Positions 21,873 to 62,273 of a stretch of 64,000 bases of DNA are shown one piece after another; within the stretch, counting starts at the first letter, position 1; every line of letters begins with the position of its first letter. This stretch comes from Dudresnaya verticillata (taxonomy: Eukaryota): positions 2,790,001 to 2,854,000 of the forward strand of contig OZ374560.1 of NCBI GenBank assembly GCA_977862235.1, read 5' to 3'. Made by a program: the position numbers and the translations under genes. The notes under the pieces were generated by a model that was not told the DNA's origin, did no database searches, and saw nothing but the letters and a program-made list of their open reading frames with translations.

Positions 21873-22046
21873 TAGGGGCTACTCGGTTGTTATTATCTCT
21901 ATGATAAAGCGACTTCCCCCTGGTTGACAGTACCAGCGCCCAGTACCAAATGGGGACCCCGCACGGCGGGGTGGAGACGCCAAACCAGCAAAATCCCTCC
22001 TCCTACACAACGCGCCAGCCACATTCTCAGCATTCTCCTAAGGCAC

Positions 22047-33792: not shown

Positions 33793-34245
33793 TTTCTGAT
33801 GAATACAGTGAAGACTACTAGAATTATCTAATGCAGGAATGAGACAGCTGCCTACAGTAAATACTAAATACTAATCCTTCGTAGCTCTAGTCTTCCAGAA
33901 AGTGCTCTAGTACTTCAACTACCTATAAGAAGGTCCCTGTGCTGTAATTTAGCGTTGGTTACAATCGCTTAAGCTCTTTGGAGGTCCAAACACTGTACAC
34001 GAGGAGGGCGTAGGACTGGTTATTGCCGATAACGGCATGATAGGGAATCAGAGGAGCTGAGGTTCTCACTCTCTTACAAACGAGTGAGAAGGAAATTCTT
34101 TTCAGTGAGGTTGCTGATATCTTACTTTCTGGCGAGGAAGGTGACAAACGTATTTGGATAATGATGGAGCAGACGTTACGCAATGTCGAACAGAAATCCC
34201 ATACGGGGCCTTATTCAGAAGGAGAGGCAAAAATGTGGCTTAGTC

Positions 34246-39796: not shown

Positions 39797-40247
39797 CATA
39801 GCACTGTCCTAAAGTGACGGCCAGCGATGGCTCATAGAAAAGCTGTTCACGCCATGCGACGTGAGCTGCACTAATATTGAGTCCCTGACAGTATCAAATT
39901 GCATTGTGCAGGCAAATTGCGTAGGCGTATTATTGTATAATTGTGTAATATAGCGTATACAGTGGTTTCATGTTATATTCCTCGCAAATTGAATTGCTTG
40001 CAGATAAATTCTGACATACTCAAAAGTATGTTACGTAAGCTATCAACTATAACATCACCATGCTCTGCTACACCTGCCGCTGCCATCCCCGATACCTCTT
40101 TGCAGGCGGCCCCCCGGCACTGCTTAAAGCTGGCATGCATCGTCTGCCGCTATCGATCAACAACTCAGTCTCCAGTTTACTCGCCTCGAAAAGCAAAGCA
40201 CTTCCGTTAAACATCTCCCTCCTCAATTATTACTCCTCGTTCCCAAA

Positions 40248-40687
40248 ATGTTCCGATTCAAGATCCTAGTCCTGCTTCTGCTTGCTCTCGCAGCCCTATC
40301 ACTCGCACTCGCCCTCCCCGAGAGCATGAATGAGAAAATCCCCGGTGCCGTGTCCTTCAGTTCTCTTGTTGTGAAATATAAGGGTGGAGATGTAGTATCT
40401 CCTATAGATGTAACGAGGGCAGAGTCCTGCCAAAGACAAAGTGCGCACAAGCGCGTGTGGAGTCCCAGTAGATGACGTTGTTTACTGAGTTGTTCTTGAT
40501 TACTCCAGGTGTGTTCTCACTACGTGTTGGAGCGCTTAAATACACACCAGTCGACTTCCAATACTCTGAAACCAGCTCTCCAGATTATCGCACTATCGTT
40601 CGTTCCTACTTTCTCTGCAATTCAAGTAAACTACAGGGTGACACTGTAGAACGAGGCAATACAATTGCAGGTGTCGGTGAGTTCTGA
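40248..40687 (+). pseudogene. Probable broken gene for a small secreted protein
   Basis: Strong signal peptide MFRFKILVLLLLALAALSLALALPE; ORF ends at 75 aa with an overlapping downstream ORF. No family recognised. Confidence 0.35.
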
Positions 40688-42601
40688 GGGCCGCAGTTTG
40701 CCACGTTCAGTCGCAGGCGCAGTCATAGCTGCTGACAACTTCCCACGCCCAGCCACGTTCATTCACAGCCGCAGATATCCTTGATGAGAGCTTACCAGGT
40801 CCGCACGCCAGCGACCACAGTATAACTGAAGTACTTGCGGGGGTTGACGAATGACATGTCGAACGCGTCAGCCTCTCGGAGATTTCAACATCTCTCTCCC
40901 AACTAAGGCGATTAAAGCCTTTGCAGCCCCCCGCGGCCCCCCGGTCGGGGTTTTCTTTCCAGGATCCGCAAATTCACGGGACCATTTAAGAAGGGGCTCA
41001 AGAAGATTTTCCCGAGACTTGCACGGCGCGGTAAGGTTGCATTGAGGAACGTTGTTAGAAGAGCTTCGGTTACGGCTCATACCAGAGTTCTCCAGGGATG
41101 CAAGTTTCTAAATCACGGGAGTCAGAGTTTAACATCAGTCAGAATCCCCTTGAATGGCGCCTTTTGCCGTTTTTTATGCTCAGACCTTTATGTGAGCTGT
41201 CTTGAGGCTTTTGACATACTCCCCCCCGCGGCTCCTGCGTGTCTAGCCGGATGCACTGATGCTTTCATTTCCTGCCTTTCCGGCTGTTAAGGTTTCATTT
41301 CTGCTGCCAGCGTTGTATAACTCTAGGCAATTTGCGTCATATGTAGTTTTCTCTTCGGCAGCTATGCGATAAGCTATTATGGGACGTCTAGAATTGAGAT
41401 ACCTTCGCAGCGCAACACATCACCACGTTGTGGCTGCAGAAATCCTGGTATTCTTAATGTTGGCTGAGTTTGTGTTTCATTCTTCATGTTATGATTTTCT
41501 TCCTTACGCGTGAGTCGCTCCTGTTCTTTAGTAGCGATCGTTCGAGTTGTTTGGGTTGTTTGTGAAGTAGAATATTAAATTTTCCAATTGTTACCATAAA
41601 GACGCGGGAAGAAGTCTGCCGAGCTATAATGAGCAACGAACTGGGTGAAGCGAAGTCCTTTTGTAGCGCTCTGCAGTGCTTTCTCAACTCACTAATATCG
41701 ATGGCAACTAGCCAAATCGATGGAAGCATGCCTGTCCTGAGTCGCATTTGTAAGGCTCCCGTAGATGATCAGTACTGTTGAAGTCAGATATAGAAGCGCC
41801 GTCGCGCTTCTATTATGTCATGACAATAGGGATTTCCGAGGTCCTCCGGGAACGACCATAACAAGTGGGGCATTCCAGACCCACTGAGCGTGCAAATGAC
41901 TAACCCATCTGTATCTCCTACCCTGGTAAGATTGAACAGGTTGACAAGCGGAAGCAACAACTGTCGATGCACTTCAAACTCCACATTTTCGTGTGCATAT
42001 ACACGCCCCTTGTCAACGCCAGTAGTGCCGTTCGTCTTCAGAGCTGCCATATCACGCACGAAGCCTTAGTCTTTGACAAGGCGGAACGACAGGACATGGA
42101 AAAGTATTCCCACGTTCCGCGGGTGGAAAGCTTGAAGCTTGACGGGTCTGAGTAAGAGTGCAGGATATCCTCCCAGGCAGAGCGTGATGTCAGGATGCGG
42201 GGGTACTTCCCTGCAGGAAGCTCATAAACAGTTGCGGTTAAACCAGGGCGTATCGGTCCAAACAGGGATTCATGAGCAGGATTTGACTCCGAAAACGTTG
42301 CGGCGGTTACGGATGTCGTGAGCAGACGTGTTGCAGTTGGTAAAGGCATTGCCCGAAAGACTTGCTATGAATTGTTCGCCACGGATGACTGTCGCATGTA
42401 GAATTCAGCGACCTGTTCTGAAGAGGTCGCTTCGTCTGGCTTTTTGTCCTGGCATGCGTGCCTGCGAACATGCGCGAGTCAAATGCATGACACGAGACCT
42501 TGCAACGTTGGTCGTATGTAGAGACCAAATTGAATCCAGCTGCAACTGGCGACTTTTCGTCATTAACAAGTTTTACATTCGGAGCGGAGTAATCATCAAA
42601 C

Positions 42602-43727
42602 ATGGACTCTTCAGAGTTTATCCCACCTCTCAAACCTAGCTCTAACCCATTTTTCAGGACAATCTCCGTTGTCCCCCCCCCCCTTCGTCCCGTTATGGCT
42701 CTCTGCCATCGAGATCTTCTTCACTTGTATCAAGGCTGTGCTTTTGGGAAGAAAATCCCCGCACAGAATCGCCGTTACAATTGCCTTTTTCATCGAATCC
42801 CTCATAGGCATAGTCTTGTCAGTCTTGCTGCTGACAAATTCTCTTCGATATGCGCAGGTAGCCGTTGAAGGATTTCATTACTTGCTTACTATTTTAGCAG
42901 CCATAGCAATCGCAACTGAGCTTTTCTGCGTTGTTATAGAAGTGTCTGTTATCCGTCGAGCATTTCTTCTGCGCTACAATGCTGAAGCCCGGGAAGAAAT
43001 TCAAGTTAACATCGGCGAGAAGTGGCGGACAGTTCTGAAGTGGGTCGCACTCATAGTGGGCACGGCCACACTTCTAACAGGGCTACTGTCGATCGATGTA
43101 TTCAACGACGAATTCGGGTTCAGCGGCTGGAGCTACACATGGACCAATCCGTTCAGTTATGCCACTCTAGCTTTGATTGCAATTCAAATAGGAACTCTCA
43201 TCGTGCTGAGTTTGGTATTAGAGGGGTCGTACTGGATTCGAATATGTTTCATTGTGAGCTTTCTGGTGATTAACATAGTAGGAGTGATCATCTTCCTACT
43301 CGCAGGAGGACAGTTGATAGGAGCAAGTGGGATTTTCGAGTTTAATCGTCGGCATCAACTTCTATCTTTCTTCGTGTTGAGCCTCGCCAGCGCCATCACT
43401 GCTTTGTCGGCATTTAGACTTTCCGGGCCCAGAGAAACTGGAGAGGCAACGAATGAATCTACAAAGGTGCTGGAGACGTTTTTCTTTGCTGCCGTGCCAC
43501 CAATTATTCTTCTTACGCTGGTGGGGAGTGAGGGGTTTGCAACAGCGGCCGATGTGGACGGAACTGGTTTTCAACTGATACTATACGAGTCTGATGTACT
43601 TCTTGTACTGATTACGATTCTGCCGCAAATGGCGGTGTTCGTGGTGCCCCTACTATTTGACCATGCCACTCTTGCTTTCCGATTGCGGAAGAATAGACGC
43701 AGTGCGTGCACCACGGGCGGAGGGTGA
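42602..43727 (+). CDS. Multi-pass membrane protein of unknown function; 5' end uncertain
   Basis: 352-codon open frame (42669-43727) with about nine hydrophobic segments. The nearest upstream ATG (42602) is out of frame by one base across a C11 run (42673-42683); alternatively CTAAC...TTTTCAG (to 42657) is an intron acceptor. Confidence 0.65.
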
Positions 43728-44057
43728 CAAGAATCGCAAACAATCTCTGCCTAGGATTGCAATGAGAACAAGGAAGGAGATTTGTACCACAAGCCGAGGT
43801 GGGTACGCCGACATTTTATTGGAAGAATGTAACGGGTTGGCGTGGATCCGTGAAAAATGTATAAAAGGTGTTTGTATCTATTGTCGTAGTGCAAATATAA
43901 ATATCCTTTCGAAGCTCGTGCTGTGCTGCAATAATGTATAATAATTGTGATTATTATTTATTTTGCTATTATTACAACCTCTTAAATCAGATTGGACTCT
44001 GCATTTTACCAAAGTGTCCAGCTCTATTATCCCTTAATGCCACAACTTGTGATTTCC

Positions 44058-44496
44058 GATGCATCCCGTAGCGGGTAGGCAACGGATCTCTTTTCCGCCC
44101 CTGCGTGGCTGATAAATACAGAGCAATATATCGTCCGGCGTCACTGAGCGCTGTAGTTCAAAAGGGTAGTGGCCTGTGAGGCTGATGATCCCTGAGATAC
44201 TCACTCAAGAATATGCGGCACCAGTTGTCCATACTTCCGCATTTCCCTTCGGCCACCTCGAGTGCCTGGCATTCTTCAGTCGAAACCCATGCCCGAGGTA
44301 TTGACTGCAACACGCTTTTGGAGCGGCCGCGACCACCCTGGACGTTCGAAGGACAATCGGCAACTAGAAAATGATTCCGAGCTTCGCTGCTTCCATGCGG
44401 AGGTCTTTTCAAAAACTCTTGCATAGCTTTCAAATATTGTTGAGCCACCGTCGCTGAGACGGCAACAATCGCACCTGATCGTCCACACAATCCATC
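44058..44496 (-). pseudogene. Old relic of the COR-TIR junction (B type)
   Basis: WIVWTIRCD...LKAMQEFLKRPPHGSSEARNHFLVADCPS...WVSTEECQALEVAEGKC...VFISHAGAEKRSVAYPLR, with frameshifts. Confidence 0.85.
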
Positions 44497-44499
44497 AAG

Positions 44500-45286
44500 C
44501 TGGGCTCTGGGACAATGGCTGCAAGCAATAACATTGCAAATTATTGTTGCACCAATACTCTCTCCGTCGGCTATCTATATTGCTATATAGCCGCCATCAT
44601 GCCCCAGTAACATCTGCAGAATATGCCTACGTCGTGCAATAAGTCTGCAATAGACTTAGATAGTGCGAAGGAAGCATGGGGATCCATGTTAACGTTTGTG
44701 TAATGCGATGTCAAAACTGTTCATTCATTTTGAGGAATATAATAGCTTCAAAAACTTGGTGGTCATCGCCTTGCGATTGTCGGTTAGCACGTGCTCCGCA
44801 ATGCTCCTGAGCCGGTCAACCTCGGCAACGGATCCAAGAATAAAGTTGCAGTTGATAATGGCATCTAGTTTCCAGGGTACCTTTCGCTTCTTGGATAAAC
44901 GCTGAATGATCGATGACTTGTAAATTATAAGTCATGGTGCATCATCGACGACGATGCTCCTATTGGCGAGAAAGCAGACCTGGCAACTTGTTAGTGATAA
45001 AGTAGCAATGATTTGGTACTATGTAATTTACAGCATGGGGCTAGAAAACGCTATATTCTCGGGATCAACTCTAGAGATACCGCTCCCCCGCAAAACCGAA
45101 CATATGTATACTGCTTTTAGCAACAGGGCTTCTAATATTGCTACTTAACTTAACCCAATAGGTATTACAATATACATTGTCACTGCCATAAGAATTGCAA
45201 TTTGCCATCACATCAGCAACTCAATATGCCATTGCTATTGTATATTGCAATATATTGCTACTGCAATTAATTGCACGACAGCCCTG
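44500..45286. repeat. TTGCAA-rich dispersed repeat, possibly a non-autonomous DNA transposon (related pieces 25020-25340, 36720-36950, 56400-56550)
   Basis: Shared blocks such as TAGGTATTGCAATAYACAWTGTCACTGC...AATTGCAATT and a common end CGACAGCCCTG. No convincing TSD. Confidence 0.5.
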
Positions 45287-47046: not shown

Positions 47047-49694
47047 CTGGAAGATAGCGAATATTGTTATACAGGCGATTGAGCTGAACCAGGGGCATAA
47101 GCAGCGCCTGAAAAGGTGACGGGTAATGACAAAAACGATAAACAAGCGCGTTGGACTTCTGCCAGAACACAATACAGGAAACGCTATTTCTCTACGGAGC
47201 GAGAGAGAGACCTTTCTCTACGGCGTTAGAATATTTGTGAATATTTGTCATGTCGTTTCTGTGCTTGTTTCAGGATGGGTAGTATTGATGAGAGCTCATC
47301 ATCTCTAAAGAGACAAGTGTCACAGGAGGTGAAAGTGCAACGTACCTTGTGGGTGTAGAAAAGATGTTTAAGACAAGAGCCCAACTTTTATGCTGTGTGC
47401 TAAGTGTTGTGAATCGCAACTACTATTTTTGATAACCACAACTCGAATCAAATGAATCGCAACTACTATTTTTGTTAACCACCCGCCCGCGGAGGCGGAC
47501 GGGTGGTGCAGTGGTTCGCCGCTGCGCGGTCGATTCCGGGAAACCGAGTTCGACTCCCGCCAGGTCCCATGGTTCTACATTTTCAAGGATTTTTCCCCAC
47601 TGGGGTTGTTTGCCGATTCTTCTCATGGAGCCGGCTGGACTGCCTCCAGATTACGGGTGTAAGCCCGTCAGTAGATAGCTGGTTGGTAGGGCGTGTGCCT
47701 GCATATGGGCCTTAGTCGCCCGCGCAACTGCGCACGTTAAAGACGCAATAAAAGTACAACATCACAACCCGTATCAATAGAACAGAATGACATTTCGAGG
47801 AACGAAGAGGACCATGTAGGAGGAGACGGAAGCAGCGAGAGCTCCCAGGGTGAACGGTTACGTCTGCCACCGTCGGAACGTTCCAGCAAATTCATGAGCT
47901 CCGTTGCGGTTTGGTACATACCGCACACAGCCGCCACCCACACTGATACACCCACTCACCGATCCATGCGTGCCGCCACTCGTCCCTTCGAGCTGCTAAC
48001 AGCATATACGGGATTTTGCGTCTCAGGAGACGAGAAACTGTCTAAACATCTCACGTGGAAGTATCTTTCAAACCCACTGGGACGAGGTCGTCGCCCTCGA
48101 AGCGAATTATGTTCCAGACCGTACTCATCGGCAGTCTGGAGACCAAAAGCATTAAAGAAAGTGTGGCGAATACGATGGCCATTGCCCGTCTCGCGCATGC
48201 GAGCGGCCATGTTCTCACCACCGGCCTGTCCAAACAGTTTGTAGGCTCTGCCTTGCTGTTCACACTTGCTCGCCCTGGAAGCTGAAGTGAGAGCCGTCAA
48301 AGCCAAACATGTCTGGATTCTTCGAGGCGAAAGCCATGCAGAAGGCCCGGATGCCGATGCTCTTAAAGTCGCATTCGTAGTGGAGCACGGCGTCAATTTG
48401 CAAGGGGACAATCTGCGTACTGATTCAGCAGGAGAAGGCACACGGGTGGTCGCCAGCGTAGGGGTCCGTGAGGCATCGCGCTTTCGGCTGGTCGCGGCAC
48501 GCGTTTTCCGTGGCGCGGCGTTCGGTGAAAGTGGCCAGCCGGGTGAAGGCAGGCTGTCAAGTGCACGAGCAGCTACTAGTGTGTCGGGTGCGGGCGGTCC
48601 CCCACAGCAAATATACTGGGACAAGGAGGTAAAAGAAACAATCGATAGGGGGGTGTCGTCCATCTTCTCTGTGGCGGTGGTCGTGGGTGCTGGTTGGCGT
48701 AAAAAGGTGAGTGCGAAGCGAGGTTGGTTCTTGTTCTTTAATAAAGGTCTCTCCTCCTCGGTTGAAAGTGGTACATACGGGCTGCAGCAAGGACGAGATT
48801 CGTGTTTCGTTTTGCTGTTTGTCGACGGGGAGATCTTTTCGGAAGGCAGTACGGCCATTAACAATAATGGGTTAACGCGGAAACAATAACAAGAGTGTTT
48901 TGTAAGCACTTTCAAGCCATCTTCTGACTCCGCCTGGGTTCTATGTATAGCCTGCACCTTGGTACGATCTCAAATGTTCAACAACCAGCCTTGTAAATAT
49001 AGACAGGACACCGAGCTGAGCTTCGATGTCAATAGACAAGGACGAAATAGAAATCAGACACACTACCGGTAATAAAGCAAGCAACAACCTGGCAGTAATG
49101 GCACACACCCGCGACATTTCCACGGCCTTGTTCTTCCACGGTCGCCATATTCTGTTTCTCTGTACAGAAACCGCATACCTAATCACACTCGACTCGTTCT
49201 ACCGGCCAGATCTTGATCGCACAGGATTTTAATAGTCTTAACTCGCAAACTCGCGAGGTACAAGATGTTTATTAGTATTAACTTGCAAACTCGCGAGAGA
49301 ACTTTTCTGCTGCTCTTGTTGCAAACTGAGTATGGGTCTCTCCACGGACATCGTTCCGAACACCGATATATCCTGTCACTTTCGCAAGTGTCTCCATTAC
49401 CTCCATCACTGGAACCTTCTTCTGCCGTTCGTGGTCGAAAAAGTGATTATCTTCAAATACACGCCGAAACCGTTCGTCATACGGAAGCTGCTTGTTCTTG
49501 CAGTCTTCCACCTGGAGTTGGTAGAAAAGCGGGAATAGTGCAGGTGACTGTGGTCTCTGCTTTCGCTCGAGAAATTCTGACAGCTCCAACATCGGCCACT
49601 TGCGAGCCACAAATGACGGCGAAAGAATGAAAGCGGCAGCCTTACTGCCGCGAATTGCCGCTCGAATTTGCTCTTCGTTTGTACGTTCCGAAAC
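47047..49694. repeat. Segmental duplication, copy 2; includes the VWD-like pseudogene (about 48000-48663, minus)
   Basis: Matches 8457-10864 apart from the SINE insertion and small indels. Confidence 0.95.
47483..47765 (+). mobile_element. tRNA-derived SINE (283 bp)
   Basis: A box TGGTGCAGTGG (47504), B box GAGTTCGACTCC (47546) and a LINE-like tail ending AATAAAAGTACAACATCAC. Absent at the paralogous site 8891; CAC on both sides. Confidence 0.85.
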
Positions 49695-52600
49695 CTTCAA
49701 ACTCTCTTCATCCAAAAAACACCGCAATCCCATTGCTTCCAATGCATTACGTAGCGGGTAGGCAACGGATCTCTTTTCCGGGCCTGCGTGGCTAATAAAG
49801 ACATCATACGGAGTTACTGAGTCTTGTAGTTCAAAATGATCGTGGCTTGATCCCTCAGACACACCCTCAAGAATATGTAACTTCAGTTGTCCATAGTTCC
49901 ACAGTTGATTGCAATAGCATTTTCCTTCTGCCTCATCGAGTGCCTGACATTCTTCAGTCGAAACCCATGTCTGAGGTATTGACAACAACACACTTTTGGA
50001 GCCGCCGCAACCCCCCTGGATGCTCGAAGGGCAATCAGTAACTAGAAAATGATTCCGAGCTGCGTTGCTTCCGTGCGGAGGTCTTGTCAAAAAATCTTCC
50101 ATAGCTTTCAAACATTCTTGAGCCACCTTCATTGCTGAGACGGCATCGCACCTGATCGTCCACACAATCCATCTTTTCTTAGGAACGAAGCAAACAACAA
50201 CGCGGCAAGTCCCCTTCAGAGAAAGAATTACAGCATCTTGGCGAAGTTCCGGTGGCTTTGTTCGCTCTCCTCCGATAGTGCGATGAAGGAATGCAACAAA
50301 GTAGCCCTCCAAGCCAGGGGGAATGGCATCGTCAAAGATGGTTCTCAAAACAATTTCGCACTCTCCTTCTTTCGTAGGGCACTGGAATCCCTCCCAACCT
50401 TTAGCAAGCAACGACGGGATCCCGACTAGCTCCTTCCGCTCACCACCCTCCGTCTCTGTAGAGTGCAAACGCATAAGAATGCCAAACCGGCACAGAATGT
50501 CAAGCATCACATCTCGAACAGGAGGTAGGTATTTACACCACAATTCATCCAGTCCCTTTCGTGGGATCAACCCTTTCTCGTAACTTTCTGCTTCATGCTG
50601 TCCCAAAGTTTGTAAACTCCTTTCGAACTCTTTCGCTTCTTCTTCACCCAGCCGTTCTCGCATAAGTTCCGCTGGCCCCGTGACCTGCCGAATAAAGTCC
50701 AGAATTACGCTCGGATCTGGAAACACATACCATCCCTCGCCCATCTGAACTTCGACGATATGCCCTTGTTGACCCTGGAATTGGACGCATTTCTCAACGT
50801 CGGCTTCTCTCTCCTCCTTGTCACTAGAGAATCCGGGAAGTCTGGCAGCTTGGCTCTGAACTTCTGTCATTAACAGAAAGACTTTTTGGCTTTCAGTGGA
50901 GTGCGATAAAATGGCTTCCCTGAGGGCAGCCCACCGAACTGGAACCTCTTCCCTTCCGTCAAGAATGTCTTCACTTGCTTCCTTGATTCTTTTCTCTAGT
51001 TCCACAACGCCTGACCCGGCACGGTCTTGTTCAGCACTGCTGTTCTTGTTCTCGATGGCAACCCACCGACACTTGTATTTGTCGACATCGCCCTTCTCAC
51101 GTACCCAGTCATCGTAGACAGCCCTTCCGAGATGCTTTCGCAGTTTTTGTCGCAGCTGCTGAAACAAGTCTTCAGGGCTTTCAACTTCTGCCTTCCTGGT
51201 TCCCACCAGGATCACCCAAACGTTTTTCGGGGTTTGCGAAGACGCATGTGCCATTTGCATCCAGTTGCATAGTTCTAACACTTCGTCCTCTTGGGTGACT
51301 TCTGACGCAAACCTTTTCAGATCTACCTCGAAAACAAAAATGGAAGCGCGGCGGATGAAGATTGCGGGAACACTGAGGTACTCTGCCTGACCTCCAAGGT
51401 CCCAGCATTGCACCAACGCAGCTCGATTATCCGCAGGTAATGCGGCACCCATGAGCCCTAGCCGTGCTACTTCCCAAATGGGAGACGCTTGGGAGTTTAT
51501 AGACTGCGAAGCAGCAATGCTGGGCGGAGCTGGTGGTTGTTGAGCAGTGGTATGGCTGCTTGCCAATGTGTCTCCACTCTGGGGAACGGTCCTCTTGGTC
51601 GGAGGAGCTCGGTTGCGCCAAGTGGGGAGTTTAAGGCGGAATCTTGCGGTGGATTTTTCACTCGGCCGCGATGATGCATCAGTTGCCGTGGGCAGCCGGA
51701 ACAATGTAGCTCTTGACATGAGGGCATGCAAGGCCTCACTGTTGAAGGCGAGCTGGTTGACAATGTCATCGTCCAACTTGGGGCCGCCGGGGACGACAAG
51801 AGTGCGACTCAGCGACACAAAGTGTGTCGGCTGGTGGGTGGCAACGAAGGGCATGGAGCGCAGGCTCCTTACCGTGCTCGTCTTTCCGCGTGCCGCACCG
51901 CCGAGAACAAGAAGAAAGCACTGCCGTGGCTTTGCTGTGGCGGTCTTGAGGGTGTTTTCAACAAGTGTGCTGGTGTCACCGATGCGGTTAAGAAGATATT
52001 GCGACCGGCTGCCGAAGACTTTAAGCTCAAGAGGCGTTACCTGTTGATGCGCTACTTGTTGATGCAGTTGGGCTGCTGTTTGCTCATCGCTAGCAACACC
52101 GACATCTCCGCGGGCAAGCAATGTGGCGAGCTCATAGAGTGCGACGCGGGTGCGATGGAGTTCGATTGAGCGTTGGAAGAGGTTCTTCGCGCGCGGCGGA
52201 TCGCGCGCGTCTCCGATATGATTGGACAAAAGCGCTTGGCCCAACCAAACCATATAAATTGGGGCCCTCTCGTGACCGCTGTCGCAGGCGCGTTGGAGCA
52301 GTTCGACGCCGCGCGGAACGTCTCGCGGAACATCGATTTCGCCGCTCAGCAGCAATTTGCCCAAATTGGACATTGCGATGACATTTTCGCCCTCCGCGAT
52401 GGCGCGGTCGTACAGCGCAGCGGCGCGCGGAGCGTCTTTGGCGACGCCGTCGCCGGTTGCGAGGAGAAGGCCCAAATTGACCATTGCGTCCACATTCGCA
52501 AACTCTGCAACGGCTCGTTCGAACAGCGCTGCCGCGCGCTTTGTGTCTTTGACAAAATGGCGCCGTCCGATATGGAGACGCGCTCCGAGTTTGCGCAGCG

Positions 52601-52892
52601 ACACCCCGCGCGGATCTCGCGCGTTGGCGCGCTCGACCAGCTCCGCGGCGCGGCGCTCGTCCTTGGGCACTCCCTCGGCTCCTTCCTTTAGCAACAGTGC
52701 AAGGCCATGCCGCGCTTCGTCATGGTCGCCCTCATCAATCGCTCGCTCGAGCAAGGCGACGGCTCGCAAAGGCAGAACGGGCCCTCCATCTGATGCGTCC
52801 CAAAACGCAAAGGCGAGTGCAACCATGTCGTGGACGTCGGCATTGTCGTCGATAGCTTGGCGAAGGGCACGGCGCTGCGGTGTGGCATCCAT
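49278..52892 (-). CDS. Sel1-repeat/ROC/COR/TIR protein, copy B (1204 aa, intronless)
   Basis: ATG at 52892 (MDATPQRR), Sel1 repeats, P-loop GGAARGKTS, WDLGGQ, VGTRK, COR (VPVRW...GHI...PSLL) and TIR YDVFISHAG...FLDEESL...FILSPSF...WPMLEL. Confidence 0.93.
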   Translation of the reverse strand: MDATPQRRALRQAIDDNADVHDMVALAFAFWDASDGGPVLPLRAVALLERAIDEGDHDEARHGLALLLKEGAEGVPKDERRAAELVERANARDPRGVSLRKLGARLHIGRRHFVKDTKRAAALFERAVAEFANVDAMVNLGLLLATGDGVAKDAPRAAALYDRAIAEGENVIAMSNLGKLLLSGEIDVPRDVPRGVELLQRACDSGHERAPIYMVWLGQALLSNHIGDARDPPRAKNLFQRSIELHRTRVALYELATLLARGDVGVASDEQTAAQLHQQVAHQQVTPLELKVFGSRSQYLLNRIGDTSTLVENTLKTATAKPRQCFLLVLGGAARGKTSTVRSLRSMPFVATHQPTHFVSLSRTLVVPGGPKLDDDIVNQLAFNSEALHALMSRATLFRLPTATDASSRPSEKSTARFRLKLPTWRNRAPPTKRTVPQSGDTLASSHTTAQQPPAPPSIAASQSINSQASPIWEVARLGLMGAALPADNRAALVQCWDLGGQAEYLSVPAIFIRRASIFVFEVDLKRFASEVTQEDEVLELCNWMQMAHASSQTPKNVWVILVGTRKAEVESPEDLFQQLRQKLRKHLGRAVYDDWVREKGDVDKYKCRWVAIENKNSSAEQDRAGSGVVELEKRIKEASEDILDGREEVPVRWAALREAILSHSTESQKVFLLMTEVQSQAARLPGFSSDKEEREADVEKCVQFQGQQGHIVEVQMGEGWYVFPDPSVILDFIRQVTGPAELMRERLGEEEAKEFERSLQTLGQHEAESYEKGLIPRKGLDELWCKYLPPVRDVMLDILCRFGILMRLHSTETEGGERKELVGIPSLLAKGWEGFQCPTKEGECEIVLRTIFDDAIPPGLEGYFVAFLHRTIGGERTKPPELRQDAVILSLKGTCRVVVCFVPKKRWIVWTIRCDAVSAMKVAQECLKAMEDFLTRPPHGSNAARNHFLVTDCPSSIQGGCGGSKSVLLSIPQTWVSTEECQALDEAEGKCYCNQLWNYGQLKLHILEGVSEGSSHDHFELQDSVTPYDVFISHAGPEKRSVAYPLRNALEAMGLRCFLDEESLKVSERTNEEQIRAAIRGSKAAAFILSPSFVARKWPMLELSEFLERKQRPQSPALFPLFYQLQVEDCKNKQLPYDERFRRVFEDNHFFDHERQKKVPVMEVMETLAKVTGYIGVRNDVRGETHTQFATRAAEKFSREFAS

Positions 52893-53761
52893 GCCGGCAG
52901 GAGCGCGCGGTCGAGCGGGTGGAGACGGTTGGAGATGGGATGGTTGGGGTGTGTGTGTCGGGAGCGAGTGCGACAAGCGCACGGCGCTATTTATGCCGCG
53001 ATGAAAGTTGCGAGTGGGACGGCGGGAGGTGTTGCAGCGCGGCGTGGGCGGCGGTGTGCCGCGTGGCGGAGCTGTTTGGAGCGGATGTTGTAAAAGTCGA
53101 AAGGCGCGTTGTCACGTCAGAGCACAGTGCCCGTGTATTTGGCGCTTGCGCCGATTGGCGCTCTGCGAGATGTTTCGGCCACGCACAAACGTCGTCATCG
53201 CTACAGCCCTTACAACAGAGTCGCGAGCCATCCTTCATCGCTTCGCGAGCTTCGTGCGGAACAAGACCTGCTCCCCGCGAGCCGACTCCGGCCGTGTCCG
53301 GCCATGTTTTTCTGTCGGCGTCCTGCACGCCCGAGGTCTGAGGTGTTGGACATGAGGCGCTGGCCTAGTGGCCTGTGACGCGGCTACGGAAGTCATCCAA
53401 CGGGCGGCGCATTGCCGGTTGTTGGCGGAGGCGGTTGTCGTGTGCTGCGCGACGTGCGATCTCCCATCTCTTTTTGCCACGCAGCAGCCGCGTCTGTATG
53501 CCGGCGGATGTTGTAAAAGTCGGCAGGCGCGTCGCGTCGTTCATCAGCGGCTGTATGCTGCGGATGCGCATCACTGTATTTCTACATCTGCAGCATCTTT
53601 GTCCCACCGCAAGTGCACCTCGCACGACAATGACGACAAACACAGCTCTCAACGCGACTCTCTCTCTCGATGGAAGCGCACTCGGCGATGCGCTGCCGCC
53701 GCCGACCGACCATGCAATGCGCGCGAGGTGTTGTTTCTTTATTGGTGTGGTCGCATAGCGT

Positions 53762-54600
53762 CATTCCTTGTTATAAGAATGCTTCGGTAAAAGAACAAGC
53801 CTTCCGTCCACCGATCCGGTTCCTTTGAAATCAGCCAGTACAGCTCACGTATGAGGGCCACATTCCTCGATAGCTGCTCGTGCACCTTTTACTGCCCTCC
53901 CGAATACCTATCGCGGTACTCGCTTCACCCCGGAGGAATGGATTACCGCGTGTGATATCCGCTTGGGCAACCCGGTTTTTACCGGCACTACTCGTTGTCC
54001 CCACTGTGTACTCACGCGGGGCGTGACGCAAGCTCCTCTACTTGATCCTCGCGGGAAACATGCCATCATCCGCGCTAGGCGCGAAGGTGCTATCCGGCGT
54101 CATAACACCTTACGCGATGCTCTAGCCAACGAATTCCGCCAGTTGGGCCTACGCCCTATCTATGTCGAATACTCGTTTCTCGCCGAACGTCATCTGCCCC
54201 CTACTTCTCGTCGCCGTATGGACGTGGTGGTTCCTATATCTGCCTTTAGCCCCCGCCCTCAGGCCTTTGACGTTACGGTGGCAGCCCCGTTTGCTGCCAA
54301 TTACTGCACTGCCGCCTCTCGCTTGGGTGGGGCAGCGGCGACGCTCGCTGAAAGGCCCAAAAGAGCGCATTACCAAGATCTACTCGACAGCGAGGGAATG
54401 GATTGGCCGCTTTACGTCCGAACAGAGAGGGAGTAACCCTTCGGACGAAACGCAAGCACTCACGAATCGCATTGTATCTCATCTTCTCCGCTTTCAGGCG
54501 CTGGCGATCAATCGCCGTCGTCTTGCCCTTCAGGTAGGTCCTTGCGTAGACGGGGCGACTTAGCGCCCTTCCAACCCTACCATAAAGGTCCCCATCTCTC
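53762..54600 (+). mobile_element. Truncated non-LTR retrotransposon with restriction-like endonuclease (CRE/R2-group-like)
   Basis: CPHC...HA...RRHNTLRD...RRMDVVV...FDVTVAAP...AAATLAERPKRAHY, then in another frame QALAINRRRL. This is the zinc-knuckle + RHN + (P)D..D + KxxxY layout of RLE domains. Confidence 0.8.
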
Positions 54601-57019
54601 CCATCTCTCAGAGCAGTGCACGTGTAGTGTATTTGGCGCTTGCGCGCGCTCCGCACGCGCCGCCATCCGACAATCATCCGCGGCGCCCATCGATCACAGT
54701 CCCATCGTCACCTCGCGCCGCCGCCGCTGCAGCATTCTGCCGACACATCGCTACATCACGCGCTGCACCACGCTCGCCCCCCGCGGACGCACAGCACATC
54801 ACATCCACAGAACTGGCGGTGCGCAGCAGGACAATGATACCTCGTCCCTCCCCTCCGCCGCGGCAGCAAAGCAGACCCACAAAAGTGTCTAAAAAAGCAT
54901 TCCAATCTCCAATCGCATCGCCAACGCGTCAGCCCCTTACTCCATGTCGATACCGTTTTGGCGGTAGTGGTGCTCTTTAATTGATGGTTGTAGCTGTGTT
55001 GGTGGAGGTACGTAGTTCGGTAACAATACTCTTTGGCTGAAGCACTTACTATGTTTCGCTCAGTGAAGGCACCCCGCCCTCTCACCCCAAAAAGCAGTAT
55101 TGCGCCCCGCCCCGTACGCAACACAGCAGGAGAGTCAGAACGCTCAAACCGACGTCATCGCTACGGCCCTTACAACAGAGTCGCGAGCCTTCGTTCATCG
55201 CAGCGCGATGCACGCGTATTTGGGGCTTGTGCGGATTGGCTCACTGTGGGATCTTTTGGCCACACCCAAACGTCGTCATCGTACAGCTGAACTCAGTCGC
55301 GCAATCCCATCCATCATCCACCGCAACCGTCAGCATTTCGTGCCCACCAAGCCACCTCGAGCTGCGCTCAACTCTGCCCGTGTTGCGCAGTCTCGCCGTC
55401 ACACCTGCTGCCGCGCCAGACATCCCGACCACGCCTACCGCCGCTCTGCTCGCTGCAACCACCCGGCGAATCGCCCCCCTCGCTCCCATTGTACACTCAC
55501 ACCCCTTGTTGTCCGTTGTCCTTGGCAGCAAGACTTGCTCGCTGTGGTGCACTCGCACACCATCGCGCCCCAGCCCGCGCCACTATGTTATTCGCTCCAG
55601 GTGTTGCATACGCTGTTTGACAATGTGCGTACTGGACATCTACGGACGTCCGCTGAACCAACGCCGTCGGTATTGCGCGGATTGTGAACAGTTGTGCATA
55701 CCTGGTGTCGCAGTTGGCCACAGCAGACGAAACATACAAGCGGTCCCCCATCTACTGCCTCGTATCGTTGCGTATCGGGAGAAGCGAGCCCCCTTTGGCT
55801 ATATTGCCCACTAACACCGATGTCTCCACCGACAGGCATCGGAAATGTCAAAGTTCCAGCTAGCGCGGGGAGGAAGCAAGGCGGCACGAGGCGAGGATCA
55901 CAATGTTTGCATGGCCGCTCACCGCCTCGATCGCGCAGTATCCCTGCACCGTGCTCACGCCTCCCTCGCCCACGGCATCCGTCTCGCTGCGCTGCTCTGC
56001 ACCCGCATGGATGGCCTCACCGCGGCGATGGATGTGGGGCACGGTGCACCTCTCACGCAAGGTGCTGGGAGAGGGTACGCCGGGCTCGAAGAACGCGCCG
56101 GGGATTCACCGTGGCGGCGGGGTGGGGCTGTTCAACTGTAGCTTGGACGACCGCGTGGCGCTCCGATGCGTCTACTGCGTCGAGTACGGCGACGCGCAAA
56201 TACCGGAAGACACCGGGGGAGGCAGCGTGCCGTGCGTGTTCGAGCTGTCCGCCCCTGCCGGGGTTCGCGCACGGGGTAGCACACCGCGTGTGATAGGCAC
56301 TGTTTGGGACTCCGGCCGCACCGGTAACGGAAAAAGCGTTCTTCGAATCACTTGTCGATCGACTACGATGACGATACGTTCAGTGACGGCGGGATGCTAT
56401 CCACAAGGGCTGCAGGCAATAACATTGCAAACACAAATGCAATAAGCAGCATGTTGCACCAATTCTCTCCCCTTCGGCAATAGGTATTGCAATATACAAT
56501 GTCACTGCAACAACAATTGCAATTGTAATTACGAGCCCGACAGCCCTGGCACTAACGGCAAAGCGGTTCACTCCCACTCCTTCCCATCGCCCTTCCACGT
56601 CTTCTGCTTGCCATACACGAACCCCGCCGCGTACGGTGGATTGCTGCCGGCTTCGCAGACAATGCGTCCGGGCCTTTTCCTGCACCAGCAAGTCGCGATG
56701 CCGGACATCCGTTCGCCCCAGGCGTGACTTACGCACTCTGTGTTATGCTCCCGTACCAGCCGCCCTTCACAGCTCCCCAGTCTCGCAAAATCAATGAAGT
56801 AGGTGCGGTGCACAGGCCGTGCGCCGTTGTGCGTCATGGAAGAGGCAGCAGGTGGAAGGGATGGGATGGGCGAGGGCCATCGAGAAAAGAAGGCGGCGCA
56901 CCGAATATGTAATACCTATTGTGTCGTCATGAGCTGCGTCGCAATAATGATTGCTGCAGGCAGTAAACGATGAGATATTTTAAACGGCAACGACAAACGT
57001 ATACTATGGACAAACTCAA

Positions 57020-60000
57020 CTAGTGACTTTCTAGTTTCTGGAGTAGTGTGATTGCGGCTCGTTGAGCAAAATCCTCGTTCGCCTCTTCGCGGTCATTCCG
57101 AATACCAACAAACGAGCTTAAACGCCCGGCCAAGTCAGCAATTTTCGTTGATGGCGATTGACTCTGTCGTTCGTATTCGAAAAACCCTCTCCTCCTGAAA
57201 AGATCGCTATTCTCTCCATGGAAAACATCCATCGCCTTCTGACACTCTTCGACCGAGAGTTTGTAGAACAACGGGAAAATCAAGGGAGGTTTCTCGCCTC
57301 TTCCAACCGCCTCATCCGTCCGCTTGAAGAATTCTTCCAGCTCTAGCATAGGCCACTTGCGAGCCAGGAACTCTGGTGACAGTATGAATATTGCAGCTCT
57401 GCTCCCTCGAATTGCAGCCATAATTTGGTCCTTATTCGTCTTTGTGGATACCTCGAGGCTTTTCTCATCTAAGAAACAACTGACCTTTGTGCCCATTGCA
57501 TTCATTACCGGCACGGCGAGGCACCCCTTCTCGCTCCCTGCGTGGCTGATAAATACATCGAAAGGTCTTGCAGCTAGTCGCACGTCAACAGGACGCGGAC
57601 CTGAGCCCGCACTTGCTCCTTTGAGGATGTGCAGCTTCAATCGCTTGAAAGTCCAAAGCTGCTCGCAAACGCAAGTGCCTTCTGCTGGGTCCAGTGGCTG
57701 GCACTGCGTACTTGTTACCCAACTCCGACGGATACCCAACTGCACGCTACTGGAACTTCCACACCCCCCGCGCAATTCCTTAGGGCAGTCGGTGATCAGA
57801 TAGTCTTTCCAGCTTGCATTGGTCCCATGCAGTGGTCCCTTCAAAAAACTTTCCATGCCCCGCAAACACTGGTGCGCAACCTGCACTGCTTCATCGGCAT
57901 CCGCCCTTATAGTCCAGTCGATCCATCTCTTTTCTGGAATAAAGCGAACCACGACTCTGCATGCTCCCGCAAGGGCCAGGATGACGGCATCTTGACGAAG
58001 CTCGGGCGGTTTTGTCCGCTCTCTTCCAATGGTTCGGTGAAGGTACGCGATCAGTGACCCTGTCAGACTTGGCGGAATGGTATCAACAAACTCTGTTCGC
58101 AAAATTAGTTCACTCTCTCCATCCTTTGTGTCACACGAGAACCCTTCCCAACCCTTTGGCAGCAGTGAAGGTATCCCGATTAGCTCGTTCTGTTCACCGT
58201 CCGCTCCTTCCACAGCCTGAAGGCGCATGATGATGTCAAATTGACAAAGAATGTCAAGCATGACTTTTCGGACAGCCGATGGGTATTTACACCACAGTGC
58301 CTCCAGTGCTTCACGGGGTATCAACCCATTCCGATAACCGTCTGCTTCATGCTGTCCCAGAGTCTGTAAAGTCCTTTCAAACTCTTTCGCTTCTTCTTCA
58401 CCCAGTCTTTCTCGCATAAACTCAGCCGGGCCCGTGACCTGCCGAATAAAGTCCAGAATAACTGTTGGATCTGGGAACACGAACCATCCCTCGCCCGTCT
58501 GCACTTCTACGATATGGCCCTGCTGACTCTGGAATTGGATGCATTTCTCAACGTCGGCTTCTCTCTCCTCCTTGTCACTAGAGAATCCGGGAAGTCTGGC
58601 AGCATGGCTCTGAACTTCTGTCATTTCCAGAAAGACCTTTTGGCTTTCAGTGGCGTGTGACCAAATGGCTTCCCTGAGGGCAGCCCATCGAACTGGAACT
58701 CGTTCCCTTCCGTCCAGAATGTCTTCACTCGCTTCCTTGATAAACTTCTCTAGTTCCACAACGCCTGACCCGGCACGGTCTTGTTCAGCACTGCTGTTCT
58801 TGTTCTCGATGGCAACCCACCGACACTTGTATTTGTCGACATCGCCCTTCTCACGTACCCAATCATTGTAGACAGCCCTTCCAAGATGCTTTCGCAGTTT
58901 TTGTCGCAGCTGCTGAAACAAGTCTTCAGGGCTTTCAACTTCTGCCTTCCTGGTTCCCACCAGGATCACCCAAACGTTTTTCGGGGTTTGCGAAGACGTA
59001 TGTGCCATTTGCATCCAGTTGCATAGTTCCAACACTTCGTCCTCTTGGGTGACTTCTGACGCAAACCTTTTCAGGTCTACCACGAAAACAAAAATGGAAG
59101 CGCGGCGGATGAAGATTGCGGGAACACTGAGATACTCTGCCTGACCCCCAAGGTCCCAGCATTGCACCAACGCAGCGCGATGGTCCTCAGGAAAAACGTT
59201 ACTCAAGAGCCCTTGTCGTGCTGCTTCCCAAATGGGAGACGCTTGGGAGTTTATAGACTGCGAAGCAGCAATACTGGGCGGAGCTGGTGGTTGTTGAGCA
59301 GTGGTATGGCTGCTTGCCAATGTGTCTCCACTCTGGGGAACGGTCCTCTTGGTCGGAGGAGCTCGGTTGGGCCAAGTGGGGAGTTTAAGGCGGAATCTTG
59401 CGGTGGATTTTTCACTCGGCCGCGATGATGCATCAGTTGCCGTGGGCAGCCGGAACAATGTAGCTCTTGACATGAGGGCATGCAAGGCCTCACTGTTGAA
59501 GGCGAGCTGGTTGACAATGTCATCGTCCAACTTGGGGCCGCCGGGGACAACAAGAGTGCGACTCAGCGACACAAAGTGTGTCGGCTGGTGGGTGGCAACG
59601 AAGGGCATGGAGCGCAGGCTCCTTACCGTGCTTGTCTTGCCGCGTGCCGCACCGCCGAGAACAAGAAGAAAGCACTGCCGTGGCTTTGCTGTGGCGGTCT
59701 TGAGGGTGTTTTCAACAAGTGTGCTAGTGTCACCGATGTGGCTAAGAAGGTATTGCCATTGGCTGCCGAAGACTTTAAGCTCAAGAGGCGTTACCTGTTG
59801 ATGCGCTACTTGTTGATGCAGTTGGGCTGCTGTTTGCTCATCGCTAGCAACACCGACATCTCCGCGGGCAAGCAATGTGGCGAGCTCATAGAGTGCGACG
59901 CGGGTGCGATGGAGTTCGATTGAGCGTTGGAAGAGGTTCTTCGCGCGCGGCGGATCGCGCGCGTCTCCGATATGATTGGACAAAAGCGCTTGGCCCAACC

Positions 60001-60979
60001 AAACCATATAAATTGGGGCCCTCTCGTGACCGCTGTCGCAGGCGCGTTGGAGCAGTTCGACGCCGCGCGGAACGTCTCGCGGAACATCGATTTCGCCGCT
60101 CAGCAGCAATTTGCCCAAATTGGACATTGCGATGACATTTTCGCCCTCCGCGATGGCGCGGTCGTACAGCGCAGCGGCGCGCGGAGCGTCTTTGGCGACG
60201 CCGTCGCCGTTTGCGAGGAGAACGCCCAAATTGACCATTGCGTCCACATTCGCAAACTCTGCAACGGCTCGTTCTAACAGCGCAGCGGCGCGCGGAGCGT
60301 CTTTGGCGACGCCGTCGCCGCTTTCGAGGAGAAAGCCCAAATTGACCATTGCGTCCACATTCGCAAACTCTGCAACGGCTCGTTCGAACAGCGCAGCGGC
60401 GCGCGGAGCGTCTTTGGCGACGCCGTCGCCGCGTCTGAGGAGAACGCCCAAATTGGACATTGCGACGGCATTTTCGCCCTCCGCGATGGCGCGCTCGAAC
60501 AGCGCAGCGGCGCGCGGAGCGTCTATGGCGACGCCGTCACCGGTTGCGAGGAGAAGGCCCAAATTGACCATTGCGTTCACAATCGCAAACTCTGCAACGG
60601 CTCGTTCGTACAGCGCTGCCGCGCGCTTTGTGTCTTTGACAAAACCGCGCGATCCGTTATCGAGACGCAGTCCGAGATTGAACAGCGACACCCCGCGCGG
60701 ATCTCGCGCGTTGGCGCGCTCGACCAGCTCCGCGGCGCGGCGCTCGTCCTTGGGCACTCCCACGGCACCTTCCTTCAGCAACAGTGCAAGGCCATGCCGC
60801 GCTTCGTCATGGTCGCCCTCATCAATCGCTCGCTCGAGCAAGGCGACGGCTCGCAAAGGCAGAACGGGCCCTCCATCTGATGCGTCCCAAAACGCAAAGG
60901 CGAGTGCAACCATGTCGTGGACGTCGGCATTGTCGTCGATAGCTTGGCGAAGGGCAAGGCGCTGCGGTGTGGCATCCAT
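57020..60979 (-). CDS. Sel1-repeat/ROC/COR/TIR protein, copy C (1319 aa, three extra Sel1 units)
   Basis: ATG at 60979, same architecture as copy B, four GDGVA-type 37-aa repeats, and TIR FDVFISHAG...WPMLELEE. Confidence 0.93.
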   Translation of the reverse strand: MDATPQRLALRQAIDDNADVHDMVALAFAFWDASDGGPVLPLRAVALLERAIDEGDHDEARHGLALLLKEGAVGVPKDERRAAELVERANARDPRGVSLFNLGLRLDNGSRGFVKDTKRAAALYERAVAEFAIVNAMVNLGLLLATGDGVAIDAPRAAALFERAIAEGENAVAMSNLGVLLRRGDGVAKDAPRAAALFERAVAEFANVDAMVNLGFLLESGDGVAKDAPRAAALLERAVAEFANVDAMVNLGVLLANGDGVAKDAPRAAALYDRAIAEGENVIAMSNLGKLLLSGEIDVPRDVPRGVELLQRACDSGHERAPIYMVWLGQALLSNHIGDARDPPRAKNLFQRSIELHRTRVALYELATLLARGDVGVASDEQTAAQLHQQVAHQQVTPLELKVFGSQWQYLLSHIGDTSTLVENTLKTATAKPRQCFLLVLGGAARGKTSTVRSLRSMPFVATHQPTHFVSLSRTLVVPGGPKLDDDIVNQLAFNSEALHALMSRATLFRLPTATDASSRPSEKSTARFRLKLPTWPNRAPPTKRTVPQSGDTLASSHTTAQQPPAPPSIAASQSINSQASPIWEAARQGLLSNVFPEDHRAALVQCWDLGGQAEYLSVPAIFIRRASIFVFVVDLKRFASEVTQEDEVLELCNWMQMAHTSSQTPKNVWVILVGTRKAEVESPEDLFQQLRQKLRKHLGRAVYNDWVREKGDVDKYKCRWVAIENKNSSAEQDRAGSGVVELEKFIKEASEDILDGRERVPVRWAALREAIWSHATESQKVFLEMTEVQSHAARLPGFSSDKEEREADVEKCIQFQSQQGHIVEVQTGEGWFVFPDPTVILDFIRQVTGPAEFMRERLGEEEAKEFERTLQTLGQHEADGYRNGLIPREALEALWCKYPSAVRKVMLDILCQFDIIMRLQAVEGADGEQNELIGIPSLLPKGWEGFSCDTKDGESELILRTEFVDTIPPSLTGSLIAYLHRTIGRERTKPPELRQDAVILALAGACRVVVRFIPEKRWIDWTIRADADEAVQVAHQCLRGMESFLKGPLHGTNASWKDYLITDCPKELRGGCGSSSSVQLGIRRSWVTSTQCQPLDPAEGTCVCEQLWTFKRLKLHILKGASAGSGPRPVDVRLAARPFDVFISHAGSEKGCLAVPVMNAMGTKVSCFLDEKSLEVSTKTNKDQIMAAIRGSRAAIFILSPEFLARKWPMLELEEFFKRTDEAVGRGEKPPLIFPLFYKLSVEECQKAMDVFHGENSDLFRRRGFFEYERQSQSPSTKIADLAGRLSSFVGIRNDREEANEDFAQRAAITLLQKLESH

Positions 60980-62273
60980 GTCGGCAGGAGCGGGCGGTCG
61001 AGCGGGTGGAGGCGGTTGGAGATGGGATGGTTGGGGTGTGTGTGTCGGGAGCGAGTGCGCCAAGCGCACGGCGCTATTTATGCCGCGATGAAAGTTGCAA
61101 GTGGGACGGCGGGAGGTGTTGCAGCGCGGCGTGGGCGGCGGTGTGCCGCGCGGCGGAGCTGTTTGGAGCGGATGTTGTAAAAGTCGAAAGGCGCGTTGTC
61201 ACGTCAGAGCACAGTGCACGTGTATTTGGCGCTTGCGCCGATTGGCGCTCTGCGAGATGTTTCGGCCACGCACAAACGACGTCATCGCTACACCCCTGTC
61301 ATACACGGCGCGGCAGCGGCCGTGACGGCGAGACTGCGCAACGGTTTGGTGGGCACGAAATGCTGGCGGTGGATGACGGATGGGATTGCGAGACTGAGCT
61401 GAGCGGCGGAGCGCGAGACTGCAGCGGTACGATGACGATGTTTGGGAGTGGTCAAAAGATCCCACAGTGAGCCAATCCGCGCAGGCGCCAAATACATGTG
61501 CACCGCGCTGCGATGAAGGAAGGCTCGCGACTCTGTTGTAAGGGCTGCAGCGATGACGACGGTTAGCGGCGAAGGCCAAGTTTCCCTCCTCTTGGTCTAC
61601 TTGGCATTGCCTGCTATGATTTTTATCTCCCCGCCCCATTAATCGCGACCAGGACGACTATTTCTTCGGTCGTAGACGAAGTAGGGCGAGGTACAGAATA
61701 GTTCTATTGCGGGGCTCGGTCGGAATCCGCACTAGCGGAGAACAGTTCTTTCACGCTGCCGTGGCTATTCCTCCAGGATACGACGTGTTAAACAGGATTG
61801 AGCACGAGCTCTCCCCTTTTAAGGAAGCCACTGCAGTTTTGACGGTCTTGAAACCGCATATGAAGATGCTCCTATGGCCAAAATGAGAGTACGTTGGCGA
61901 TAAAAGAGCGAAGACCAACAAGTCATTTGGCCAGTTCAAAGATAAAGATTGTTGTTCGAATTGGGGTATTTCTAACGTTTAGGTGCCTTCTATCGCATTT
62001 CCGATGATATGTTTCGCTATCCATTCCAATTGAGTGACTGAAGGAAAGATGCTTGTGAATCTTAAACGAGGCACCGACAACTTCACTACTAACTCGGTTC
62101 AGCTGCTCCGGTTTGATTACTACAACAGTCAAAACGGCAGGGTTAGACTATTTCACGACTGGTCTAGTTACAGTCTCCCCGATAACTACGATGCCGGATT
62201 ATCGCGGATCACAAACAACGACTTATAACTGTACCCCTCCTCTCCCTGTTTTCGGGAATCGTGTGCTTTCCAT

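Follow-up and report, generated by a model that had tools for sequence, protein, structure and literature searches.

A 64,000-nucleotide stretch of the Dudresnaya verticillata contig OZ374560.1 (GenBank assembly GCA_977862235.1, positions 2,790,001 to 2,854,000 of the forward strand), here called the window, carries two intact genes, A and B, in which Sel1 repeats are followed by ROC, COR and TIR domains, together with broken copies of the same family. The encoded proteins are likely intracellular non-self receptors of a sensor-switch-effector type, in which the Sel1 groove would be the sensor, ROC-COR the nucleotide switch and NAD+-cleaving TIRs the effector. Their anatomy and evolutionary signature consist of the domain order, predicted folds, motifs, change focused on the groove, a difference in repeat number, mosaic copies, a pseudogene and fragments. 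Published work already covers, each on its own, this architecture, the idea of ROCOs as receptors and groove selection in repeat receptors. Added here are groove-specific selection and the exchange of output cassettes, with which the family is no longer just a list of domains but a receptor candidate that can be tested.

Gene copies in the window

Copy C and fragments D, E, F and G were located by tblastn and by self-blastn of the window, in which all positions below are given.

49278-52892, minus strand: gene A, intact, uninterrupted open reading frame of 1204 amino acids (Sel1 solenoid at residues about 1-286, ROC about 322-649, COR about 650-1010, TIR 1029-1204)
57020-60979, minus strand: gene B, intact, uninterrupted open reading frame of 1319 amino acids, domain order as in gene A
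11497-15183, minus strand: copy C, full-length pseudogene interrupted by two point stops (codons 50 and 393)
10448-10864, minus strand: fragment D, last 138 codons of an A-type TIR, 94% amino acid identity to A
27411-27773 (approximate), plus strand: fragment E, Sel1 units, inverted relative to fragment F
27774-28321, minus strand: fragment F, frameshifted 5' part of a copy, comprising its upstream region and its first Sel1 units
44054-44538, minus strand: fragment G, COR end and TIR start, about 79% nucleotide identity to A, broken

Gene B has three more 37-residue Sel1 units than gene A and a different TIR. Copy C has a COR-B of the B type, a third TIR and a ROC insert longer by 27 codons. 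The ROC insert of gene A measures about 70 residues and is of low confidence in the structural model. Fragment D is followed by a duplicate, about 2.4 kb long, of the 3' flank of gene A.

An earlier note on this DNA had counted two intact genes, a full-length pseudogene at 11497-15183 and four relics, and open reading frames, tblastn and self-blastn returned the same tally. All four relics were found, but the two made of Sel1 units (E and F) abut in opposite orientations and are probably one copy broken by an inversion, as judged from their sequence. The family had also been described as tandem; the copies are indeed clustered, but direct adjacency holds for A and B alone, which lie 4.1 kb apart. 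The description of the genes as intronless is supported at the level of DNA, not RNA: the frame is open, it aligns to a Chondrus crispus protein over 94% of the queried region, and a signal scan of it gave no consensus in-frame intron candidate. An intron within the ROC insert was considered and rejected, as consensus signals are absent and relatives carry an insert there too.

Diversifying change on the predicted Sel1 groove

The groove was analysed in 17 Sel1 units from A, B, C, E and F, using codons 1-30 of each unit and four position classes; the unit pattern did not pick up the first unit, the last unit, the second unit of C and of F, or a partial unit in E, and these were left out. Position 1 of the numbering is the start of helix A in the model of residues 1-410 of B. 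Positions 2, 5, 6, 9, 12 and 13 of a TPR are ligand contacts (PMC1261162), and this numbering was carried to Sel1 by way of the shared fold and the TPR consensus.

The positions so defined hold 29 of the 42 minimum amino acid changes on 24 of the 120 codon sites, and none of the groove sites has a synonymous-only variant. Just 4 of 593,775 six-position sets reach 29 changes, and the best shifted register has 20. When steps were counted on minimum spanning trees, there were 33 nonsynonymous steps over 183.5 groove sites versus 9 synonymous steps over 312.3 sites, a ratio of 6.2 (p 5e-8), and the intact genes alone gave a ratio of 5.4 (p 8e-5); both p values are approximate because the repeat units are related. 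The ratio at the other repeat positions is 0.77. For the Sel1 region as a whole, the ratio of nonsynonymous to synonymous substitution rates (dN/dS) exceeds that of ROC (Fisher p 0.002 and 0.004).

The number of repeats varies as well, by one block in gene B whose units share 87% identity over 60 residues at an offset of 37 in an ungapped scan:

60209-60541, minus strand: three extra Sel1 units of gene B, 111 codons without counterpart in A and C

Hypermutation of the type made by diversity-generating retroelements was rejected as the source of the groove variants, since 8 of the 27 variable groove nucleotide columns have no A in any copy. It is also disfavoured by the reverse transcriptases of the window, which are LTR-type (long terminal repeat) RVT_1 pieces with RNase H or integrase-chromodomain pieces nearby.

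Mosaic copies and exchange of TIRs

Over the Sel1 repeats, ROC and the beginning of COR, the copies are 4-6% different from one another. Gene A departs from B and C at about residues 720-770, beyond which the difference rises to 33-39%, while B and C remain 96-100% identical through COR-B and split exactly past the first TIR strand.

57536-57559, minus strand: first TIR strand of B (11992-12015 in C), recombination breakpoint; B and C match fully as far as this strand and are saturated past it

Fourfold sites at which B and C differ number 2 of 91 in COR-B and 18 of 33 in TIR, and maximum chi-square values of 478-784 compare with at most 28 in 500 permutations. Near-identical sensor-switch halves are joined in these copies to two COR-B types and three deeply diverged TIRs. 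In a TIR tree of 39 rows, drawn open, A, B, C and D group with two further TIRs (support 90/94), which fits an exchange among old local paralogues. Purifying selection acts downstream of the repeats, with dN/dS of 0.15-0.38 in ROC, 0.19-0.41 in COR-A and, where dS could be estimated, 0.12-0.14 in the TIR core. The birth-and-death turnover put forward in the earlier note is confirmed.

Segmental duplications of 86-96% identity were also seen in the window, pairing 8457-10864 with 47047-49694 and 16109-24363 with 29709-32309; they carry gene ends and non-coding blocks.

Domain order, predicted folds and motifs

Pfam matches in both A and B run in the order Sel1 (E 6e-23 and 2e-42, respectively), Roc (30.5 and 34.4 bits, cut-off 27) and TIR_2 (57.1 and 34.2 bits, cut-off 28). 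The order Sel1-ROC-COR-TIR, for which a profile scan had been proposed as a check, is borne out by it for three domains; COR stayed under the cut-off (COR-A E 0.034 in B, no match in A) and was seen in the structural model. In the relative P0006, Pfam COR-A is matched at E 1e-7.

Residues 281-1204 of A were modelled from a 57-row alignment with a predicted local distance difference test score (pLDDT) of 82.6. The model matches LRRK1 (E 2e-13) and the RocCOR tandem of C. tepidum (3dpu, 8e-13), and also the isolated COR chain 3dpt, with a template modelling (TM) score of 0.61 by target, and the plant TIRs RUN1 and RPP1, plant TIRs being nearest to its TIR fold. The model of residues 1-410 of B (pLDDT 90.8) has Sel1 solenoid structures as its top Foldseek matches.

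Genes A and B encode a ROC G domain with G1-G3, which in the model is directly followed by COR, as in ROCO proteins. The repeats are predicted to be helical hairpins of 36-38 residues forming a solenoid, as in Sel1-like proteins, and domain order and full-length homology, as read from sequence, agree with the TPR/Sel1-ROCO-TIR proteins of Chondrus. No Pfam match to an NB-ARC or NACHT core was found in A or B at E 0.05. The proteins are ROCOs and members of the Chondrus-type group; they are NLR-like in working at most, and they are not NLRs, because they have a ROC-COR core with a C-terminal TIR, where fungal NLRs have a STAND ATPase core and an N-terminal effector.

The motifs of the two genes, and of the TIR of copy C, lie as follows.

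51876-51902 (A) and 59630-59656 (B), minus strand: ROC G1 P-loop, canonical
51387-51401 (A) and 59141-59155 (B), minus strand: ROC G3, canonical, with Pro at the switch II His position that comes after it
51186-51203 (A) and 58940-58957 (B), minus strand: ROC G4 region, Ala at the expected guanine-specifying Asp
49581-49598 (A, Glu1103), 57338-57355 (B, Glu1213) and 11791-11808 (C), minus strand: TIR W-x-x-x-E-L

G1, G3 and W-x-x-x-E-L are present in A, B and C as the earlier note had claimed, and alignment agrees with it that all three full-length TIRs keep the Glu. Among aligned rows, in counts that include near-duplicate sequences, the G1 Lys is conserved in 22 of 24, the G2 Thr in 22 of 22 and the G3 Asp in 26 of 27. 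Between COR-B and TIR (residues 954-994 of gene A, about 49911-50033) there are four Cys, kept in 25-27 of 26-28 rows, and these likely form a metal-binding site. The best sequence match of the TIR in PDB is AbTir (E 5e-11), with Trp and Glu aligned, and the Glu occurs in 32 of 34 rows, those of A, B and C among them. A catalytic Glu in helix C and an upstream Trp, as read from the sequence, are those of NADase TIRs. In AbTir the E208A mutant has no activity, and residues of two TIRs make up the active site (bioRxiv 10.1101/2022.05.07.491051).

Relatives and comparison with known systems

The best named relative is Chondrus crispus XP_005713456.1, with 30% identity over the region aligned above and with Sel1, Roc and TIR. 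A HMMER scan yielded 27 representative sequences with E values no higher than 1e-30, and of 22 matches checked by cluster, four clusters were Chondrus and one was Gracilaria domingensis (a TIR-only match). These names point to a host that is likely a florideophyte red alga other than Chondrus. Word-index searches scored about 8,000 candidates, and a profile search of a set of 5.8 billion sequences gave two weak matches. Among the 36 relatives scanned with Pfam out of 150 listed matches, three have Sel1, Roc and TIR, three have Sel1 and Roc without TIR, two have Sel1 and TIR without Roc, four have Roc and TIR, and one each has ankyrin or leucine-rich repeats (LRR) together with Roc, COR and TIR. 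Close relatives of the TIR are also found on NB-ARC or NACHT proteins. Judged by such domain content, the family is modular. Variants with two TIRs (TIR-ROC-COR-TIR), with ankyrin repeats before ROC-COR-TIR and with Sel1-TIR lacking ROC occur among P0013, P0159, P0009 and P0002. In a quick ROC-COR tree of 20 rows, from which rows shorter than 380 residues and copy C were left out, A and B fall in a seven-row group with a Chondrus protein, and there is no clear single orthologue.

The Sel1-ROC-COR-TIR layout is not new. It occurs in Chondrus crispus, for which a 'TPR-ROCO-TIR (Chondrus crispus)' was named in 2024 in a paper that counts five ROCOs there (PMC11378527). Chondrus XP_005713456.1 and XP_005712860.1 (Sel1-ROCO-TIR) and XP_005710386.1 and XP_005719309.1 (ROC-COR-TIR) share 29-36% identity with the window proteins over ROC-COR-TIR, as well as the domain order, the G motifs, the four Cys before the TIR and the catalytic Glu, but the named Sel1 members lack highly similar internal repeats. 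For the Chondrus proteins, the available text of PMC11378527 does not describe clustering, groove selection or TIR exchange, and the available parts of PMC8307928, PMC9806590 and PMC7159879 do not describe the architecture. In the literature searched, which covered few subscription papers and no supplements, no work was found on how Sel1-ROCO-TIR genes are selected or clustered or exchange their TIRs; nor, with few subscription papers covered, was a functional study, the sole mention being that in PMC11378527. Sel1 proteins of Asparagopsis have been listed among potential pathogen receptors (PMC12115072).

Brown algal LRR-ROC-COR proteins are candidate immune receptors (PMC11378527). They resemble the window proteins in having a repeat sensor ahead of ROC-COR, selection on the concave face and many pseudogenes. 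They differ in that the repeats are LRRs encoded by one exon each, with exon shuffling and alternative splicing, whereas here Sel1 repeats lie in an open frame; in the portion of the source available, most lack a C-terminal effector domain and none has a TIR. Fungal NLRs with WD, TPR or ANK repeats, of the het-d/het-e type (PMC4986451), share highly similar repeats that are polymorphic in number, sites under selection on the concave face and modular effector exchange, and differ in core and effector position as given above. Bacterial (LRR-)ROC-COR-TIR proteins, represented by several ESM Atlas clusters and P0105, likewise place TIR_2 after ROC-COR; they have an LRR sensor, and the ESM Atlas leads are by feature score, with no alignment. 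No function of these bacterial proteins was found in the literature searched. The predicted ROC-COR fold is shared with C. tepidum Roco, LRRK1 and LRRK2, but the window proteins have no kinase, G4 Asp or switch II His. With the NAD-cleaving TIRs (AbTir; plant RUN1, RPP1 and L6) they share the Trp, the Glu and a basic residue two before the Trp, but the TIR is C-terminal to a ROC-COR unit and is a predicted NADase only.

Proposed mechanism and alternative explanations

In the proposed mechanism a ligand, foreign or altered, would be bound in the fast-diversifying groove of the Sel1 repeats, and ROC-COR would serve as a nucleotide-dependent oligomerisation switch. Roco proteins are modelled as a monomer when GTP-bound and a dimer when GDP-bound, with COR-B as the main interface (PMC6337361). 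By analogy, the protein at rest would be monomeric, its single TIR kept apart from others, and the activating step would be hydrolysis or release of the nucleotide, not GTP loading; ligand binding would favour this step together with pairing through COR-B. Because COR-B directly precedes the TIR, pairing would let the TIRs meet and form a two-molecule active site, and the clustered TIRs could then cleave NAD+, leading to a defence signal or local cell death. New specificities might come about with no need of introns, through point changes at six codons in each repeat and unequal recombination of repeats, and new sensor halves may spread onto older COR-B/TIR ends by recombination between copies.

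A wider proposal is offered tentatively, and as a whole it is somewhat doubtful: red seaweeds may use a ROCO chassis for an immune or allorecognition system equivalent to NLRs, in which an intronless locus diversifies the groove codon by codon and by repeat number, COR-B/TIR cassettes are separately swapped at the first TIR strand, one sensor is joined to several NADases, and ROCO pairing under nucleotide control switches the enzyme on directly. If the cassettes are indeed swappable, the NADases may make different signals or evade different inhibitors.

Several points weigh against the proposed receptor mechanism. Over the whole Sel1 region dN/dS is 1.4-2.75, not significantly greater than 1 (p 0.13 and 0.25). 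The signal rests on the groove class, which was fixed after the variable columns were known, and events in the repeat units, being related, are not fully independent. Highly similar internal repeats (80% over 60 residues) occur in just 3 of the 17 relatives checked; P0014 and P0155 are nearly identical. There are relatives with Sel1 and TIR and no Roc match (P0002, P0020 and P0028) and with Sel1 and Roc and no TIR match (P0012, P0014 and P0030), so neither ROC nor TIR is obligatory in the wider family. A conserved Glu is no proof of NADase activity, and a two-fold dimer might not suffice to form the active site of the TIRs, which is head-to-tail. At the G4 position all three copies carry Ala, and just 6 of 29 aligned rows have the Asp; at the switch II position, where 23 of 28 rows have His, A, B and C have Pro. 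Since both residues are absent, nucleotide handling may differ from that of the Rocos studied. The term 'GTPase-switched' used in the earlier note is less safe for this reason, although G1-G3 are kept. In Rocos G4-G5 vary and the switch II region is the most conserved (PMC6337361); on that source the G4 Asp is not family-defining, but its absence lowers the claim of a normal GTPase.

These substitutions would suit a degenerate or non-switching ROC that is a mere scaffold, the TIRs being gathered by ligand-driven clustering of the Sel1 solenoids alone, and so would the Sel1-TIR relatives without a Roc match. Such a scaffold is nonetheless unlikely, as the G1 Lys, G2 Thr and G3 Asp are kept at the counts given above, ROC is under purifying selection, and G4-G5 are variable in Rocos anyway (PMC6337361). 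The ligand might instead be no microbial molecule but a polymorphic protein of the alga's own kind, met in cell fusion or in parasitic red algae and recognised as by fungal het-d/het-e, which we regard as distinctly unlikely. Cell fusion and parasitic relatives do occur in florideophytes. Groove selection, similar repeats and repeat-number change mirror the fungal NLRs, some of which control heterokaryon incompatibility (PMC4986451); pathogen pressure, however, predicts the identical signature, and no polymorphic gene that could be a linked partner was identified in the window.

Little probability is given to signalling outside immunity (stress, development) or to a family decaying under relaxed selection and gene conversion. 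In favour of these readings, broken copies outnumber intact ones in the window (one pseudogene and four fragments versus two intact genes), LTR retrotransposon pieces lie in the region, and brown algal ROCOs respond to other stress too (PMC11378527). Relaxed selection, however, predicts a ratio near 1 along the repeat, not about 6 in the groove versus 0.8 elsewhere; the groove excess persists in the intact genes alone, and the downstream domains are under purifying selection. It is highly improbable that uncollapsed haplotypes or misjoins in the assembly made the apparent copies and mosaics. The 5' halves are 92-100% identical in most alignment windows, but the 3' ends are saturated at synonymous sites, the 3' flanks are unrelated and a misjoin leaves the groove-specific change unexplained; with three different TIRs and two COR-B types, the copies cannot be two alleles.

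The reading of the genes as non-self receptors, already made in the earlier note, has gained groove diversification, repeat-number variation and TIR exchange in its favour, and their immune function we still infer. In the available text of PMC8307928 and PMC12115072 no functionally shown red algal immune receptor is described, the candidates being lists of domain architectures. An arms-race signature singles out one family here, and six residues per repeat likely set specificity; with signature and residues named, the family becomes testable and is relevant to seaweed farming. A TIR NADase fused behind COR would also make the Roco monomer-dimer cycle, which is debated and underlies LRRK2 biology, readable through a simple enzyme assay (PMC6337361).

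Other features of the window

Upstream of the family genes a TATA-like hexamer of putative function occurs at the same place in A, B and C and is present in fragment F.

52988-52993, minus strand: TATA-like hexamer of gene A, 101 nucleotides upstream of the ATG

A non-coding element of about 80-130 nucleotides also recurs upstream of family genes (53081-53248, 55147-55281, 15428-15546, 16526-16577 and 61208-61509), twice before A and before C and as an inverted pair before B.

LTR retrotransposon pieces were found at 3-5437 (minus strand), 6462-8009 (plus strand) and 20008-21927 (plus strand), comprising a reverse transcriptase with RNase H, an integrase-chromodomain piece on the opposite strand, and another reverse transcriptase. 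Two more long open reading frames at 1791-5437 gave no Pfam match. An open frame of 386 codons at 42567-43727 (plus strand), also without a Pfam match, encodes a very hydrophobic, likely multi-pass membrane protein. Two short open frames at 40128-41290 (plus strand), again without a Pfam match, encode a signal-peptide-like stretch in the first and a basic, Cys-containing tail in the second. The gene at 34150-35320 (minus strand) codes for a protein that is likely secreted, is Cys-rich at its N-terminus and matches VWD weakly (E 0.002-0.007); the halves of the gene lie in different frames across a run of G (a frameshift or an intron). It has one homologue, at 49%, and degraded copies of it lie just downstream of A (48126-48316) and just downstream of fragment D (9259-9449).

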